A DNA stretch of 64,000 bases from sequence record OQ411014.1; one strand, 5' to 3'. The translations under genes were made by a program, and so were the position numbers. Shown one piece after another: positions 2,521-53,819 of the stretch. Each line of letters starts with the position of its first letter. Position 1 is the first letter of the stretch. The stretch comes from Escherichia phage EJP2. Under the pieces are notes generated by a model that saw only the letters and a list, made by a program, of their open reading frames with translations, was not told the origin of the DNA and did not search any database.

Positions 2521-3014
2521 ATACGTATATCAGTGGGTTTTACAAGTACTACCTATCGTTCATAACTATATTTGCTATTCTGTTATTGAATGAAACAGAA
2601 CAATTTGGATCAAAATTCCTATCAGAAGGACTAGGAATCTTCCTTCAGGTTATCTTTGCACTGATGGCTGCTATATCAATGCCAGTACTGATCTATGGTA
2701 TTCATCTTGTTGCGAGCGATGACCAGGATAGTAAGGACTCGTGTATCCGTGAGTACTGCCAAGCAGCAAAATACAGTACTATAAGTTCTATGATACCGTT
2801 TAGTCTAATTATTGTGTCCATCGCTATGTTCCAATGGAATCTGTGGTTCTTGGGTACGTTTGGATTTATTATGGGTTGTAGTATGTACGTGTATACTAAA
2901 GTACTATACAGAGGTGAGAAACTATTCACTGAAATGGAAGCCCGTAAAGGAACCAAAGCACCAGTTCAACGAGAAGAGCGAGATTATTTCGCACCAGACG
3001 ATGAGTTACCTTGA
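2517..3014 (+). CDS. hypothetical integral membrane protein
   Basis: 165 aa; about four hydrophobic segments; 4-nt overlap with upstream gene. Confidence 0.55.
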   Translation: MNTYISGFYKYYLSFITIFAILLLNETEQFGSKFLSEGLGIFLQVIFALMAAISMPVLIYGIHLVASDDQDSKDSCIREYCQAAKYSTISSMIPFSLIIVSIAMFQWNLWFLGTFGFIMGCSMYVYTKVLYRGEKLFTEMEARKGTKAPVQREERDYFAPDDELP

Positions 3015-3074
3015 CACGTACCTGAAGAGTAGCTATAATACTTTCATTGAAGCGAAACTAACAAAGGAAACATA

Positions 3075-3329
3075 ATGGATACCGTACAGATTGAATCTTT
3101 GACTTCACTTGTTCTTGATAATGTAAAAGCTGAAGAAGAAATTTCAGTACAAATCAAAGCAGAGTATCAGTGCATTACTGAAAAGCTCCAAGATGCGAAG
3201 TACACTGTAACGAAAGAAATTGAAGAGCATTATAAGAACATTGAACGTCTGTTCCGTGTCAAGCAAGAACACATTGTTCGTCAGAATAACGCTAAGACTG
3301 CAATCAATAAACTTCTGGGAATCGCATAA
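3075..3329 (+). CDS. hypothetical protein
   Basis: 84 aa; RBS aaggaaa. Confidence 0.55.
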   Translation: MDTVQIESLTSLVLDNVKAEEEISVQIKAEYQCITEKLQDAKYTVTKEIEEHYKNIERLFRVKQEHIVRQNNAKTAINKLLGIA

Positions 3330-3808
3330 TGAAAAACGTACAACAATACATTCAGAACTTCACCGCATATCCAGTATCAGTAATGTTCGGACATATCGAT
3401 ACACCTACTCCTAAGCAGAAGAAAGCGGAGAAACGTGTAGCAGAAATCTGTGAAGAACTGTATCGTTTTGATTGTACAGTACTATCAGATGTGCGAGCAG
3501 CATTCCGCGAGTTAGATGTTCTTATCTCCTTGAGTGATGATAAGTTCCGCATCAAGCAAGTGCGTCTAACTCGTATGACTGGTCGTTTGGCATATTTTGT
3601 TGACAAAGCGGTTGTAATGCTCGATAATATGCACAAGAAAGACCAGCAACTTCAGCAGTACTGGCAACCGCTGTCAATGAAAGCTAAAGTACTGAAGGAT
3701 GAAATCAAATCATTCCTTATCCAGTACGATACTTCAGTTGATAAGATTGTATTACTGTCTGAATTTGACAATGCATACAAAGAAGCCCAAGAGGAAGATA
3801 AGAAATGA
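3329..3808 (+). CDS. hypothetical protein
   Basis: 159 aa; TAATG-type coupling with upstream gene. Confidence 0.6.
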   Translation: MKNVQQYIQNFTAYPVSVMFGHIDTPTPKQKKAEKRVAEICEELYRFDCTVLSDVRAAFRELDVLISLSDDKFRIKQVRLTRMTGRLAYFVDKAVVMLDNMHKKDQQLQQYWQPLSMKAKVLKDEIKSFLIQYDTSVDKIVLLSEFDNAYKEAQEEDKK

Positions 3809-4305
3809 CAACTGTTTTCGTGAGTAAAGAATTAGGAATTGCTATTACTGACTCACGAGCCACGTTTCAAGAGTCCAGGAAGTTTCTTGGGCTTTTTAAC
3901 TTGACTCCATTACCATCGTATAAAGTTGTGAATCAAAAGGCTTTGTATGTTCATGACCGTTTATTCTTAGCATGTGGAAGTGTAGATACTATTGATAAAG
4001 TATTGCAATATTTCATCGACGGTACTAAGTTCAAGATAAACAAGAAAACTCCAAGCTGTGAGTGTCTTCTTCTTGGTAAAGAATACGGTGTACACTTGTA
4101 CGTGTGGAATGGTAAGATTCATAAGAAGACTATCTTCTTGGCGTATAATTTTGTACACTTCATGGGGTCTGGTAGTTCTGCCCTACTCAGAAAGTACTAC
4201 AAGACTTTAGAACGTAATACACCAGATGAAGTTATTGATATTTTCAAGACTGTACATTTGGATGATAGCTTCACTGACGATAACGTAAATTTATACAGAA
4301 TCTAG
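3805..4305 (+). CDS. hypothetical protein
   Basis: 166 aa; ATGA overlap with upstream gene. Confidence 0.6.
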   Translation: MTTVFVSKELGIAITDSRATFQESRKFLGLFNLTPLPSYKVVNQKALYVHDRLFLACGSVDTIDKVLQYFIDGTKFKINKKTPSCECLLLGKEYGVHLYVWNGKIHKKTIFLAYNFVHFMGSGSSALLRKYYKTLERNTPDEVIDIFKTVHLDDSFTDDNVNLYRI

Positions 4306-4334
4306 TTGACAGTCTAAAAGAGATATCATATAAT
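4306..4334 (+). promoter_or_regulatory. sigma70-type promoter
   Basis: TTGACA-N17-TATAAT (ttgacagtctaaaagagatatcatataat). Confidence 0.65.
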
Positions 4335-4364
4335 CATTGCATACCACAACGAGAGAGAAACAAA

Positions 4365-4511
4365 ATGAGTACATTCATCGTAGAATATGTTCTGACTGGT
4401 CAAAGCATCTGGCAGGTACAAATGGTAAAAGCATGTAATAAAGAGCAAGCCCAGAGCACGCTCAAGAAAATGATTTCTGGTGTAGTAACCACCAAAGCAT
4501 ACCCAGCATAA
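4365..4511 (+). CDS. hypothetical small protein (48 aa), below ORF-track cutoff
   Basis: ATG with RBS gagagag upstream, flanked by promoter 4306-4334 and terminator 4526-4554; preferred over the antisense 4326-4562 ORF. Confidence 0.4.
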   Translation: MSTFIVEYVLTGQSIWQVQMVKACNKEQAQSTLKKMISGVVTTKAYPA

Positions 4512-7508: not shown

Positions 7509-7838
7509 ATGAAGATGGAAGACTTAGTAGAACTATTACAGCCGTACGCTACAGTACTATTTTTGATTGCTTCAATGTATACTGTTGTAACTCTAGTACT
7601 TGGATTCTTCAAGTATCGAACACTAGCTAAACGCTTAGACGAGAACTTATGGCTCTCTGTTCCTAGTATCTTTAGTGTAGCTATTAGTATTGCAAACTAT
7701 TTTATTGAAGATCGTATGTTCGCTGCTATTATGTTATTATTTGTTTTGGTTGGGGTAACATTTGTAGGTACTATCTATGCAATGTGTAAAGGATTTGTGT
7801 ACGTTCGTTCCAAGATACCAGATCCAGAACAAGAATAA
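7509..7838 (+). CDS. hypothetical integral membrane protein
   Basis: 109 aa; three hydrophobic helices. Confidence 0.55.
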   Translation: MKMEDLVELLQPYATVLFLIASMYTVVTLVLGFFKYRTLAKRLDENLWLSVPSIFSVAISIANYFIEDRMFAAIMLLFVLVGVTFVGTIYAMCKGFVYVRSKIPDPEQE

Positions 7839-7846
7839 TTCTAATT

Positions 7847-7876
7847 AATGCTCACTTCGGTGAGCATTTTTTTTAT
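7847..7876 (+). terminator. rho-independent terminator
   Basis: hairpin aatgctcac-ttcg-gtgagcatt followed by T8. Confidence 0.7.
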
Positions 7877-7880
7877 TTTG

Positions 7881-7889
7881 TGATATAAT
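7881..7889 (+). promoter_or_regulatory. extended -10 promoter candidate
   Basis: TG-a-TATAAT immediately after the terminator; a second TATAAT lies 6 nt downstream. Confidence 0.4.
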
Positions 7890-8469
7890 TAAGCTATAAT
7901 CTCGATTAACCATTATGGTATAAAGAAACCTAATCCACTCGAAAATGTAGAGGGTAGATGAGTTGAGTAATCGCAACGAAGTGCAAATGAAACCCGTTAG
8001 GTGAAGGCATAGTTAGTACCTCCCACGGCGACGCGGCACTATAAATGAGCATGGTAAGATGATATTGCTCACTCGATAGACGTATAGGATGAACACCTAC
8101 CAAATATCTAAGGGAGTTCATCAAAAAGGCTGGCTATAGATCCGTCCAGAATTTGATGAACACAGTACTGAATTGACTGTATAGTTCAGTACTGAAGTGT
8201 AGTAAGACTACGACCGTTGCAGAACAGAGATAGGGAGAAACAGGGCAACCCGCTTCCGTATCGTAAGATAATTCTCTATACAGTACTCCGATGCTATCAG
8301 CGTCAGATTGTCGTCCCTCCCTTGTGGGGGGATGAAATTTCCTCAACAAATCTCGTCAGGATTGATTCAGTACTATTGATATTAAATGAATATTCAGTTA
8401 TGATACGAAGTATCTAACGAATACCAGACTTCTCATAAGAGAAGGATGTGATGACCCAAAGGAGATATA
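7890..8469 (+). other. ~580-bp untranslated region with GC-rich inverted repeats (candidate structured ncRNA)
   Basis: no convincing ORF on either strand; local stems (gttcatcaaa...tttgatgaac; cagtactgaa-N12-ttcagtactg; ccctccc-ttgt-gggggg). Confidence 0.3.
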
Positions 8470-8718
8470 ATGAAGATTTTCAAATTTATTGCTGCTTCAG
8501 TACTAGCACTTTCCCTAAGTGCGTGTGATCGCGTAACAGAAGAACGTTCGCATGAGTTCGCACTTCCTTCTGAGTTAGTTCAAGCAGGATGTAAGATTTA
8601 TCGTATGCGAGCTGAAAGTGGTGTAACTCTATATGCTTTGTATTGTCCTAATTCCACAACCACAACAAGCTACACCAGTGGTAAACAAACTCATCATGTC
8701 ACTACGTACAGTAACTAA
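8470..8718 (+). CDS. putative lipoprotein
   Basis: 82 aa; signal peptide with lipobox LSLSAC; RBS aaggag. Confidence 0.6.
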   Translation: MKIFKFIAASVLALSLSACDRVTEERSHEFALPSELVQAGCKIYRMRAESGVTLYALYCPNSTTTTSYTSGKQTHHVTTYSN

Positions 8719-53757: not shown

Positions 53758-53819
53758 TTGACAGTACTGAATAAAAGCGTATAATGTTTTATATCGAGAG
53801 CGGGAAGAGTTCCCGCCTC
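53758..53819 (+). promoter_or_regulatory. early-type promoter + leader hairpin
   Basis: TTGACA-N16-TATAAT then gagagcgggaa-gag-ttcccgcctc. Confidence 0.7.

Follow-up and report, generated by a model that had tools for sequence, protein, structure and literature searches.

The stretch analysed here, referred to as the window, comprises 64,000 nucleotides of Escherichia phage EJP2 (sequence record OQ411014.1; one strand, 5' to 3'). Within it, positions 7877 to 8469 form a gap between an intrinsic terminator, which marks the boundary after which a new transcription unit begins, and a gene for a lipoprotein-like protein of 82 amino acids (aa). An initial annotation, made from the letters alone, had located both the terminator and the gene start at 8470 correctly, as a terminator scan and the list of open reading frames (ORFs) confirm, and had interpreted the gap as specifying either a structured RNA without coding function or a long regulated leader of the genes downstream. 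We consider that the gap is probably the gene for a large structured non-coding RNA that represents a new class and acts in trans during infection, a reading to which we assign a probability of roughly 0.6. Beyond the initial proposal, the RNA belongs to a multi-copy family, contains pseudoknots, fills the whole gap and occurs in bacterial islands.

The initial view that 7877-8469 lacks a convincing ORF has held up. The longest candidates encode 71 aa (8134-8349, minus strand), 66 aa (8217-8417, plus strand) and 64 aa (7930-8124, minus strand), none of which is conserved, and across 48 homologues the longest internal ORF ranges from 31 to 91 aa with no frame, strand or position in common. Insertions and deletions among the copies are not multiples of three, so that the frame is broken, and substitutions track base-pairing rather than codon position. 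An AUG-led frame after helix H16 was considered as a small peptide and rejected; the frame shifts between copies and the nucleotides stay conserved, and it is therefore taken to be non-coding. Some annotators have nevertheless placed three or four short 'hypothetical proteins' across the RNA, mostly on the opposite strand (for example in Hallingskeid, PQ464590.1, 52720-53331, in PHA46 and in other records), as might be expected if the segment held one or more coding genes with unusual starts, a decayed pseudogene or merely a chance AT-poor gap. In view of the differing frames and strands, the frame-breaking indels and the substitution pattern we give these explanations almost no credence. The annotated proteins are almost certainly artefacts, and the annotation of several deposited genomes can be corrected on this point. 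The locally raised GC content that had been remarked upon is real but modest, at 0.42-0.43 in the gap against 0.31-0.35 just upstream and 0.37-0.42 downstream.

The features of the locus, all on the plus strand, are as follows; helices are labelled H and pseudoknots PK, and 'compensatory' refers to pairs that show compensatory changes.

7509-7838: upstream gene, terminated by a strong intrinsic terminator
7847-7876: intrinsic terminator of that gene, a 9-bp stem (7847-7868) followed by a T-run (terminator scan)
7879-7889: extended -10 promoter TGTGATATAAT (TG-a-TATAAT at 7881-7889), read from the sequence; no -35 element in the window copy
7896-7929: 5' leader, from comparison of the upstream regions of all copies
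7901-7909: leader motif CUCGAUUAA (family consensus YCUGAUUGR)
7909-7919: H0, a small hairpin (ACCA-uua-UGGU) in the 5' leader, followed by an A-rich linker
7930-8116: 5' domain (RNAalifold and pair counts)
7930-7940/7950-7957: H1, with loop GAAAAUGUA; 6 of 8 pairs compensatory
7962-7964/7975-7977: H2; 2 of 3 pairs compensatory
7980-7984/8036-8040: H3; 3 of 5 pairs compensatory
7994-7997/8025-8028: H4, nearly invariant, enclosing a variable hairpin (8000-8024)
8046-8051/8066-8071: H5; 6 of 6 pairs compensatory
8057-8108: PK2, the H5 loop (about 8057-8064) with 4-5 nucleotides (nt) just 5' of UAAGGGAG (8104-8108)
8085-8088/8096-8099: H6; 2 of 4 pairs compensatory
8117-8125/8152-8160: H8, a variable peripheral hairpin with arms UUCAUCAAA and UUUGAUGAA
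8161-8306: 3' domain, the universally conserved core (pair statistics of alignment A2)
8163-8172/8185-8194: H9, CAGUACUGAA-N12-UUCAGUACUG
8176-8284: PK1, ACUGUAU of the H9 loop (8176-8182) with AUACAGU (8278-8284), stacked on H12
8197-8202/8208-8214: H10, in the 3' domain
8216-8249: PK3, GUUGC (8216-8220) with GCAAC (8245-8249) of the H13 loop; it crosses both H12 and H13
8226-8230/8273-8277: H12, in the 3' domain
8233-8237/8253-8257: H13, in the 3' domain, with invariant loop AAACAG.GCAACCCG
8259-8262/8267-8270: H14, in the 3' domain, with a GUAA loop
8290-8294/8300-8304: H15, with motif M1 (CGUCAG, 8301-8306) on its 3' arm (cross-subfamily covariation)
8311-8335: H16, a C-rich/G-rich hairpin with conserved 3' arm GGGGGGAUGAAA
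8339-8359: 3' tail CCUCAACAAAUCUCGUCAG, at the end of which M1 is repeated as motif M2 (CGUCAG, 8354-8359)
8360-8448: downstream module of AU-rich linker, AAUGAAU box, H18 and H19, conserved 3' of M2 across paralogues
8376-8404: sigma-70-like match TTGATA-17-TATGAT (consensus scan, 10 of 12 positions)
8402-8414: H18, GAUAC-GAA-GUAUC, recognised by eye only; family loop consensus GAACGAAGUGA
8425-8448: H19, family form UUGAC-stem-loop-stem-GGCAA; 7 of 9 pairs compensatory
8458-8464: ribosome-binding site AAAGGAG, belonging to the 82-aa gene and not to the RNA
8470-8718: gene for the 82-aa lipoprotein-like protein (ORF list), a neighbour of the RNA and not part of it

Covariation and the fold of the RNA

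Conservation with covariation in related genomes, and a folding-energy score against shuffled controls, had been suggested as checks on the initial annotation, and both favour a structured RNA, with compensatory changes in dozens of pairs, those of three pseudoknots included. From 28 sequences RNAalifold predicted 70 pairs, 42 of which show compensatory double changes. In a hand-curated structure of 91 pairs (alignment A1), 84.5% of cells pair as against 41-43% when the 3' partners are slid, double changes occur in 54 pairs, and the covariation score is 0.408 compared with 0.07-0.13; none of 500 shuffles reached the observed value on four of the five measures. The values are higher still for the 39 pairs of the 3' core in alignment A2, which consists of 19 sequences, includes a divergent subfamily and is confined to this core: 96.1% of cells pair (37-44% when slid), 30 of the 39 pairs are compensatory, the score is 0.709 against at most 0.16, and no shuffle out of 500 reached the observed value on any of the five measures. 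One-column register shifts in A1 gave poor counts for H9, PK2 and H15 when these were transferred from the row of the window copy, and their support is taken instead from A2, from a permutation test and from covariation across subfamilies, respectively. A home-built covariance model (R1), the E-values of which are rough, scores the 3' domain of the window copy at 146.8 bits. Conservation and covariation are much stronger evidence than folding energy, for which the 433-nt core gives a minimum of -124.3 kcal/mol as compared with -107.6 +/- 6.1 for shuffled sequences (z = -2.72; 0 of 100 shuffles as stable). Only the plus strand accommodates the G-U pair of H13, which is invariant, and the changes from C-G to U-G in H16; it is therefore this strand, the sense strand of the flanking genes, that folds.

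The predicted fold, supported by these comparisons, contains at least 15 helices and three pseudoknots. PK1 is paired in 99.5% of cases in A1 and 98.5% in A2, with six of its seven pairs compensatory in each, and PK3 is paired in 100% with three of five pairs compensatory in both alignments (for example GUUAC/GUAAC, GUUGU/ACAAC and GUCAU/AUGAC). The latter emerged from a strict covariation scan, a lenient all-against-all scan having been swamped by G-U pairs and phylogenetic noise. PK2 is represented by at least 10 different complementary sequence pairs, such as AGCA/UGCU, UACAU/AUGUA, AUACC/GGUAU, AUCGU/ACGAU and GCAC/GUGU; complementarity averages 4.34 within the same sequence, a value that none of 5000 permutations reached, as against 3.53 across lineages, and the exact register is ambiguous in the window copy. 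Two long-range pairings proposed by RNAalifold, UGA 7959-7961 with UCA 8356-8358 and GGG 8112-8114 with CUC 8352-8354, are not claimed, since they involve invariant bases and are lost in RaK2 and in subfamily B (see below), where M2 changes and the proposed partners do not.

The three inverted repeats recognised initially lie where they had been placed (8117-8160, 8163-8194 and 8311-8335) and correspond to H8, H9 and H16. Invariant junctions in the 5' domain comprise GAUGAG, GAAACCCGU, CACGGC..GCGGC, UAUAAA, GAUAGAC and UAAGGGAG. H8 differs in length and sequence among paralogues, and other copies bear a recurring module with loop UACAAnAnAGAUCCGU and stem UUUGG/CCAAA. Depending on the paralogue, this module is inserted at H8, at H14 or in the H4 region (for example in L036, 4340-4932, and L043, 6264-6806; A1 columns about 113-165, 286-330 and 460-492). 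It has a GATC site and could be a tertiary-contact, protein-binding or kissing-loop module.

The pairs of H16 vary only from C-G to U-G, and their register is ambiguous in the window copy. The H16 motif occurs once in the window; in ECO103, a 121Q-like genome assembled here and unannotated, it is found in three of four copies and at one unrelated site outside any copy, the fourth copy diverging from the search pattern. Within genomes the tail CCUCAACAAAUCUCGUCAG matches inside copies of the element only. Covariation of the 5' arm of H15 with M1 across subfamilies (GACGA/UCGUC versus UUCG/CGAA) proves, at the level of sequence, that M1 pairs in H15. M2 in turn always copies M1, the two motifs changing together among lineages: both are ACGAAG in subfamily B, CUUCAAG in RaK2 and UGUCA(G/A) at one Mimasvirus-type locus. 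Either M2 may compete with M1 for the 5' arm of H15, or a single co-evolving factor may read both motifs.

The extended -10 promoter identified initially is conserved: of the 48 paralogues nearly all have TGTG(A/G)TATAAT or CTGGTATAAT at a distance of 45-60 nt from H1 on its 5' side, in many cases together with a GGGACA-like -35 element, and a copy in an Escherichia coli island also carries this promoter upstream of H1. Being of the extended -10 type recognised by host sigma-70, the promoter would let the host polymerase transcribe the RNA from the start of infection. From the position of the -10 element, transcription probably starts near 7896, which predicts a transcript of about 465 nt to M2 and about 555 nt to H19. 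A proximal promoter at TGGTATAAA (7914-7922) was rejected, as comparison of all copies assigns these bases to the 3' arm of H0 and the A-rich linker. The match at 8376-8404 is a possible, weak candidate for a separate promoter of the 8470 gene, because the number of such sites in the region equals chance expectation. Comparison of the flanks extends conservation at both ends, so that the whole gap is conserved at the RNA level, and structure conservation reaches as far as the ribosome-binding site of the following gene.

Paralogous copies in jumbo phages and bacterial islands

A blastn search with the gap matched 71-72 phage records at 285 places, three to five per record, with identities of about 68-87%. 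All of these records are RaK2-like jumbo myoviruses of about 350 kb, whose hosts are Escherichia, Klebsiella, Salmonella, Erwinia, Yersinia, Serratia, Pectobacterium, Cronobacter and Xanthomonas. ECO103 carries four copies on the same strand, at 18, 128, 208 and 262 kb, and the 64-kb window one. About 140 more copies came from scanning IMG/VR and the JGI/ENA metagenomes for sequence patterns and checking the matches with nhmmer; they lie mostly on contigs of about 350-370 kb and otherwise on shorter fragments and on contigs of subfamily B. After removal of near-duplicates 48 sequences less than 97% identical were left.

The copies fall in five to six syntenic loci, which are kept across genera and have different neighbours: a Dam methylase; DUF7325 and DUF5856 proteins; gp55, gp47, gp46, endonuclease VII and baseplate hub; an ADP-ribosylglycohydrolase; and, at the locus of the window, a 256-aa protein. 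The genes downstream are, according to locus, a 174-aa protein followed by Dam, DUF5856, the ADP-ribosylglycohydrolase, the lipoprotein-like 82-aa protein and others. Since the neighbours differ, the RNA is not the leader of one gene family. The paralogues are about 30% diverged from one another and syntenic across genera, and hence are ancient rather than recent insertions. Within positions 1-24000 of the window, the only megablast-level match to the closest relative, Erwinia phage Hallingskeid, is the RNA (7929-8366, 86.9%). The syntenic 256-aa downstream protein is 22% identical to its counterpart, and the two small proteins that flank the RNA show no detectable similarity in this comparison. 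Judged by sequence, then, the RNA is the most conserved feature of its neighbourhood. The same 24 kb have almost no nucleotide similarity to 50,697 phage records, the best places covering at most 7%, and the genome of the window seems to come from a lineage of RaK2-like jumbo phages that has not been described.

A divergent subfamily (B) is found on seven metagenomic contigs from ENA (L287, L247, L285, L252, L297, L260 and L296). Its 5' domain is different, and its 3' domain is kept almost base for base: AAGGGAG, H9 with PK1, H10, PK3, H12, H13, H14, H15, H16 and the tail are shared, H15 having UUCG in place of GACGA as its 5' arm. On contig L260 both neighbouring ORFs run antisense to the RNA. 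Members of subfamily B have an extra conserved block after M2 (GUGUUCGUGCUGCUAAAGCACUC...), and their contigs encode a Thg1-like tRNA-His guanylyltransferase and large proteins.

The RNA is also present in bacteria. Identical full-length copies occur in two of 5,426 complete E. coli genomes (LR-29-1 and EEC_W5). In LR-29-1 the copy lies in an integrative island of about 10.5 kb between ffs and ybaA (NZ_AP027515.1, 3473144-3485515, here L311):

L311 5910-6546: RNA copy, within a 1.4-kb ORF-free gap

This gap holds the promoter aatGTGATATAAT, the leader, the segment from H1 to M2 and an internal terminator. It is preceded in the island by an integrase split by IS3 and two genes without assigned function, and is followed by three further genes without assigned function, an mSLOG/DUF4326-DUF488-DuOB operon (PDC-M45, a candidate defence system of PADLOC), a resolvase and a second such candidate, PDC-S16. 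The covariance model scores the island copy at 125 bits, comparable to phage copies. Only the segment from H1 to M2 matches phages, at 80.6% to the type-III copy (Serratia phage BF and Erwinia SNUABM phages); the flanks have no phage match and M2 is the 3' limit of the shared DNA. A further 700 nt or so behind the RNA (L311, 6546-7259) are likewise free of ORFs. A contig of a Buttiauxella metagenome-assembled genome (DAMALH010000023.1, L164) carries an integrase (896-2167), the RNA (2848-3441), a CI/LexA-like repressor on the opposite strand (3878-4504) and a DNA invertase, which looks like a prophage or satellite-type integrative element. In the scan of bacterial genomes, 119 of 120 among the matches listed were due to chance, and a plasmid search gave no match to the RNA. 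Because it is intact in an island without any phage neighbour, the RNA unit is portable. The island copies argue that the RNA may matter in conflicts between phage and host or between mobile elements, as effector, decoy or bait, and they offer in E. coli an immediate genetic handle on its role.

Relation to known RNAs and possible functions

A scan against Rfam 15, among whose families are RNase P, tmRNA, 6S, group I and II introns, GOLLD, ROOL, OLE, raiA, HEARO and c4, was a further check proposed at the outset; at gathering thresholds it gave no match in the whole 64-kb window. In E-value mode the window copy, a 121Q copy and a copy of subfamily B gave only chance-level matches to unrelated families, the best of which (25 bits against a threshold of 80) falls on the upstream terminator. 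ARAGORN likewise found no tRNA or tmRNA genes in the window, and together these results agree with the initial annotation, in which inspection by eye had matched the RNA to no tRNA, tmRNA, RNase P RNA or group I intron. A resemblance of ACAG..AACCCGCUU to the CR-IV element of RNase P was rejected, there being no P4-like partner and no Rfam support. The position of the RNA is also not that of a group I or II intron, as it is intergenic, has its own promoter, follows a terminated upstream gene and matches no intron model; in our reading, the order of its helix strands differs from the P3/P7 topology. We found no description of the RNA in the PMC and bioRxiv literature, and a catalogue of candidate structured RNAs from IMG/VR, which may contain fragments of it, lists motifs of 29-151 nt only (PMC10690425).

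The closest kind is that of the large 'ornate' phage-associated RNAs GOLLD and ROOL. These too are several hundred nt long with many helices, pseudoknots and conserved junctions, are phage-borne and are not bound to one neighbouring gene family. According to a passage of PMC7567579 that cites Harris and Breaker, GOLLD accumulates during lytic growth, and both GOLLD and ROOL form RNA-only homo-oligomers (PMC12286853). With such assemblies the jumbo-phage RNA shares only size, complexity and phage setting. It matches neither covariance model in sequence or structure, belongs to jumbo myoviruses of the Enterobacterales rather than to phages of Bacillota, rumen or lakes, is not located beside tRNA genes in the window, and occurs as three to five diverged paralogues per genome, each with a promoter. 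Long non-coding elements in ORF-free gaps of large virulent phages are also represented by the ~800-nt RNA of ICP1 and by lncRNAs 001-004 of PA5oct, which are among the most abundant phage transcripts (PMC7567579; PMC7318152). PA5oct, with its four lncRNAs, is a relative of the RaK2-like phages. For those RNAs there are expression data and no structure model, whereas for the present one the reverse holds. Homology to lncRNA001-004 was considered and rejected (best nhmmer E = 0.85; best cmsearch with filters off 7.3 bits, E = 0.37).

In the trans-acting reading, host sigma-70 RNA polymerase would start at the extended -10 promoter at 7879-7889, and the transcript would fold into two domains, a 5' one that varies and a 3' one that is conserved universally, joined by its helices and pseudoknots. 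The folded RNA itself would be the product. During infection it would form a ribonucleoprotein core, lure away a host or phage factor as a decoy, or work on its own as an RNA-only machine or ribozyme, with the three to five anciently diverged paralogues supplying dosage or variant peripheries. Its tertiary organisation and invariant junctions would be in keeping with ribozymes, ribonucleoprotein cores and RNA-only assemblies and atypical of leaders. Autonomy is suggested by the intrinsic terminator that follows the core in most copies, by the intact, promoter-bearing copies in the E. coli island and the Buttiauxella element, and by the L260 copy, antisense to both its neighbours. Several observations weigh on the other side. 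We found no RNA-sequencing study of a RaK2-like phage in the literature, and no protein partner, ligand or catalytic motif was identified. As there is no terminator before the 8470 gene, the window RNA would form the 5' end of the mRNA of that gene unless it is processed. In most loci, moreover, conserved structure runs on, in the manner of a leader, to the ribosome-binding site of the next gene, and in locus II the Shine-Dalgarno sequence lies within the H19 loop. Finally, H16 and the tail remain conserved even though they are behind the terminator in most copies, so that a model in which the RNA simply ends at the terminator is insufficient. Thus the structured RNA proposed initially is upheld by dozens of compensatory pairs and the pseudoknots; of the two forms named in that proposal, the window copy, which has no terminator before the next gene, may be either the free RNA, as we favour, or the leader.

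It is possible, if somewhat doubtful, that the RNA functions in cis, the nascent transcript controlling the genes behind it through processive antitermination of the HK022 put type, a terminator switch or a translation gate at H19. The arrangement would permit this: the upstream terminator is succeeded at once by a strong promoter and then by the RNA, which heads a co-oriented block of genes, with the window copy necessarily co-transcribed with the 8470 gene. H18 and H19 are conserved and abut the next start codon, the following gene starting 0-45 nt after H19 in the other loci. In loci II, III and IV the core is followed, just 5' of H16, by an intrinsic terminator. The GUCAGA of M1 provides the 5' arm of this terminator in locus II and overlaps H15, and terminator and H15 are consequently mutually exclusive there. 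M1 and M2, both complementary to the 5' arm of H15, also give the layout of a switch; the H15 arm recalls seqB of P4 CI RNA, which is complementary to seqA and seqC. The overlap with H15 is confined to locus II, as is the Shine-Dalgarno sequence in the H19 loop. Against a cis role, loci I and V, the latter being that of the window, have no terminator to regulate. A riboswitch or gene-specific leader is expected in the 5' untranslated regions of functionally related genes, but those downstream of this RNA differ from locus to locus and are unrelated; in the E. coli island only the H1-to-M2 segment is shared, the genes behind it being unrelated, and the L260 copy is followed by no co-directional gene. 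Its location, with a promoter immediately in front and terminators behind, would suit a put-like RNA, whereas its size and fold are unlike put. The put and P4 CI/P1 c4 RNAs are of 70-80 nt with two stem-loops, in contrast to at least 400 nt and three pseudoknots here, and Rfam gave no c4 match. To our knowledge, no antiterminator or riboswitch approaches a core of about 400 nt with three pseudoknots. P4 CI/P1 c4-type regulatory RNAs are mentioned in a passage of PMC7567579.

We regard as less probable a role in replication, in which the three to five units would serve as origins with a persistent R-loop, aided by the run of six G residues in H16, and the transcript would be processed to a leading-strand primer. 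Whether ColE1 RNA II forms an R-loop depends on its fold and on a G-rich segment, and T4 has several origins per genome, a number resembling that of the copies here. As with RNA II and the transcripts of oriF and oriG, T4 origins that depend on a promoter, each unit combines a promoter with a structured RNA of about 500 nt, and has a conserved G-run near its 3' end. The copies are well spaced in genomes of about 350 kb, as in ECO103, one locus adjoins gp46/gp47, endonuclease VII and the baseplate hub, and an island carrying only the RNA unit could exploit an infecting phage for its replication. This case is built on copy number, spacing and the G-run. However, the four-point spacing is not statistically unusual (p about 0.06 by our own estimate). 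In most copies the G-run is preceded by a terminator, and the tertiary structure is far more elaborate than in these systems; T4 R-loop origins are not known to require a conserved RNA tertiary structure, and three pseudoknots with invariant junctions speak for an RNA that functions in folded form and less for a primer that forms a hybrid. It is very unlikely that the RNA is a selfish element, either a non-autonomous mobile unit or a transposon or retroelement RNA with a guiding or structural task, which would pass from phage genomes to bacterial islands and back. Its copies are multiple and dispersed, it contains the short direct repeats M1 and M2, and the same discrete H1-to-M2 segment is present near integrase genes in the E. 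coli and Buttiauxella integrative elements; but the synteny and divergence of the copies indicate an ancient rather than recently transposed family, no gene for a transposase, reverse transcriptase, IscB or TnpB lies next to them, there are neither terminal inverted repeats nor target-site duplications, and in Rfam neither group II introns nor HEARO or further omega-RNA families were matched.

RNAs that are both large and highly structured are rare, and nearly all classes of known function are fundamental (RNase P, the ribosome, self-splicing introns and tmRNA); the orphan classes OLE, GOLLD, ROOL and raiA are under active structure determination. The RNA would add to these an orphan class of about 450 nt with three covariation-supported pseudoknots and three to five paralogues per genome, present in the cultivable coliphages 121Q and PBECO4 and in phages of Klebsiella, Salmonella, Erwinia, Serratia, Yersinia, Pectobacterium and Cronobacter. 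A more specific and only tentative suggestion is that it constitutes a catalytic or self-assembling class (ribozyme, ribonucleoprotein core or RNA-only multimer), which would be expressed from host-type promoters at the start of infection and be central to the conflict between phage and host, intact copies having been captured by defence islands as bait, decoy or countermeasure.

Other repeated sequences in the window

The palindrome CAGTACTG is hugely over-represented throughout the window (for example at 2267, 7168, 8163, 8187, 9551, 53762, 54557 and 62348), where it is found in promoter spacers, terminator stems and coding regions. With at most one mismatch TCAGTACTGA occurs 85 times as against 3.2 expected, a number reached in none of 100 shuffles, and candidate roles are those of a protein site, a modification site or a structural element. 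Between about 53700 and 63900, a strong promoter unit, aaAGTACTTGCACAGTACTGAAtAAAGCGTATAATGTTTTATATCGAGAGCGGGAA..TTCCCGCCTC, is repeated every 0.3-3 kb (for example at 53762, 54557, 56589, 58843, 59268, 62348, 62660 and 63877). It consists of a TTGCAC -35 element, a TATAAT -10 element and a conserved hairpin at the 5' end of the transcript, and looks like an early-gene promoter cassette. On the minus strand between 37004 and 48118, a terminator-like unit, AAAAAAATACCAGTAC-gtattt-CAGTACTGGTAT, recurs about every 1.2 kb and probably follows the members of a series of paralogous genes arranged in tandem on that strand; in Hallingskeid eight RCC1-like genes form an array.

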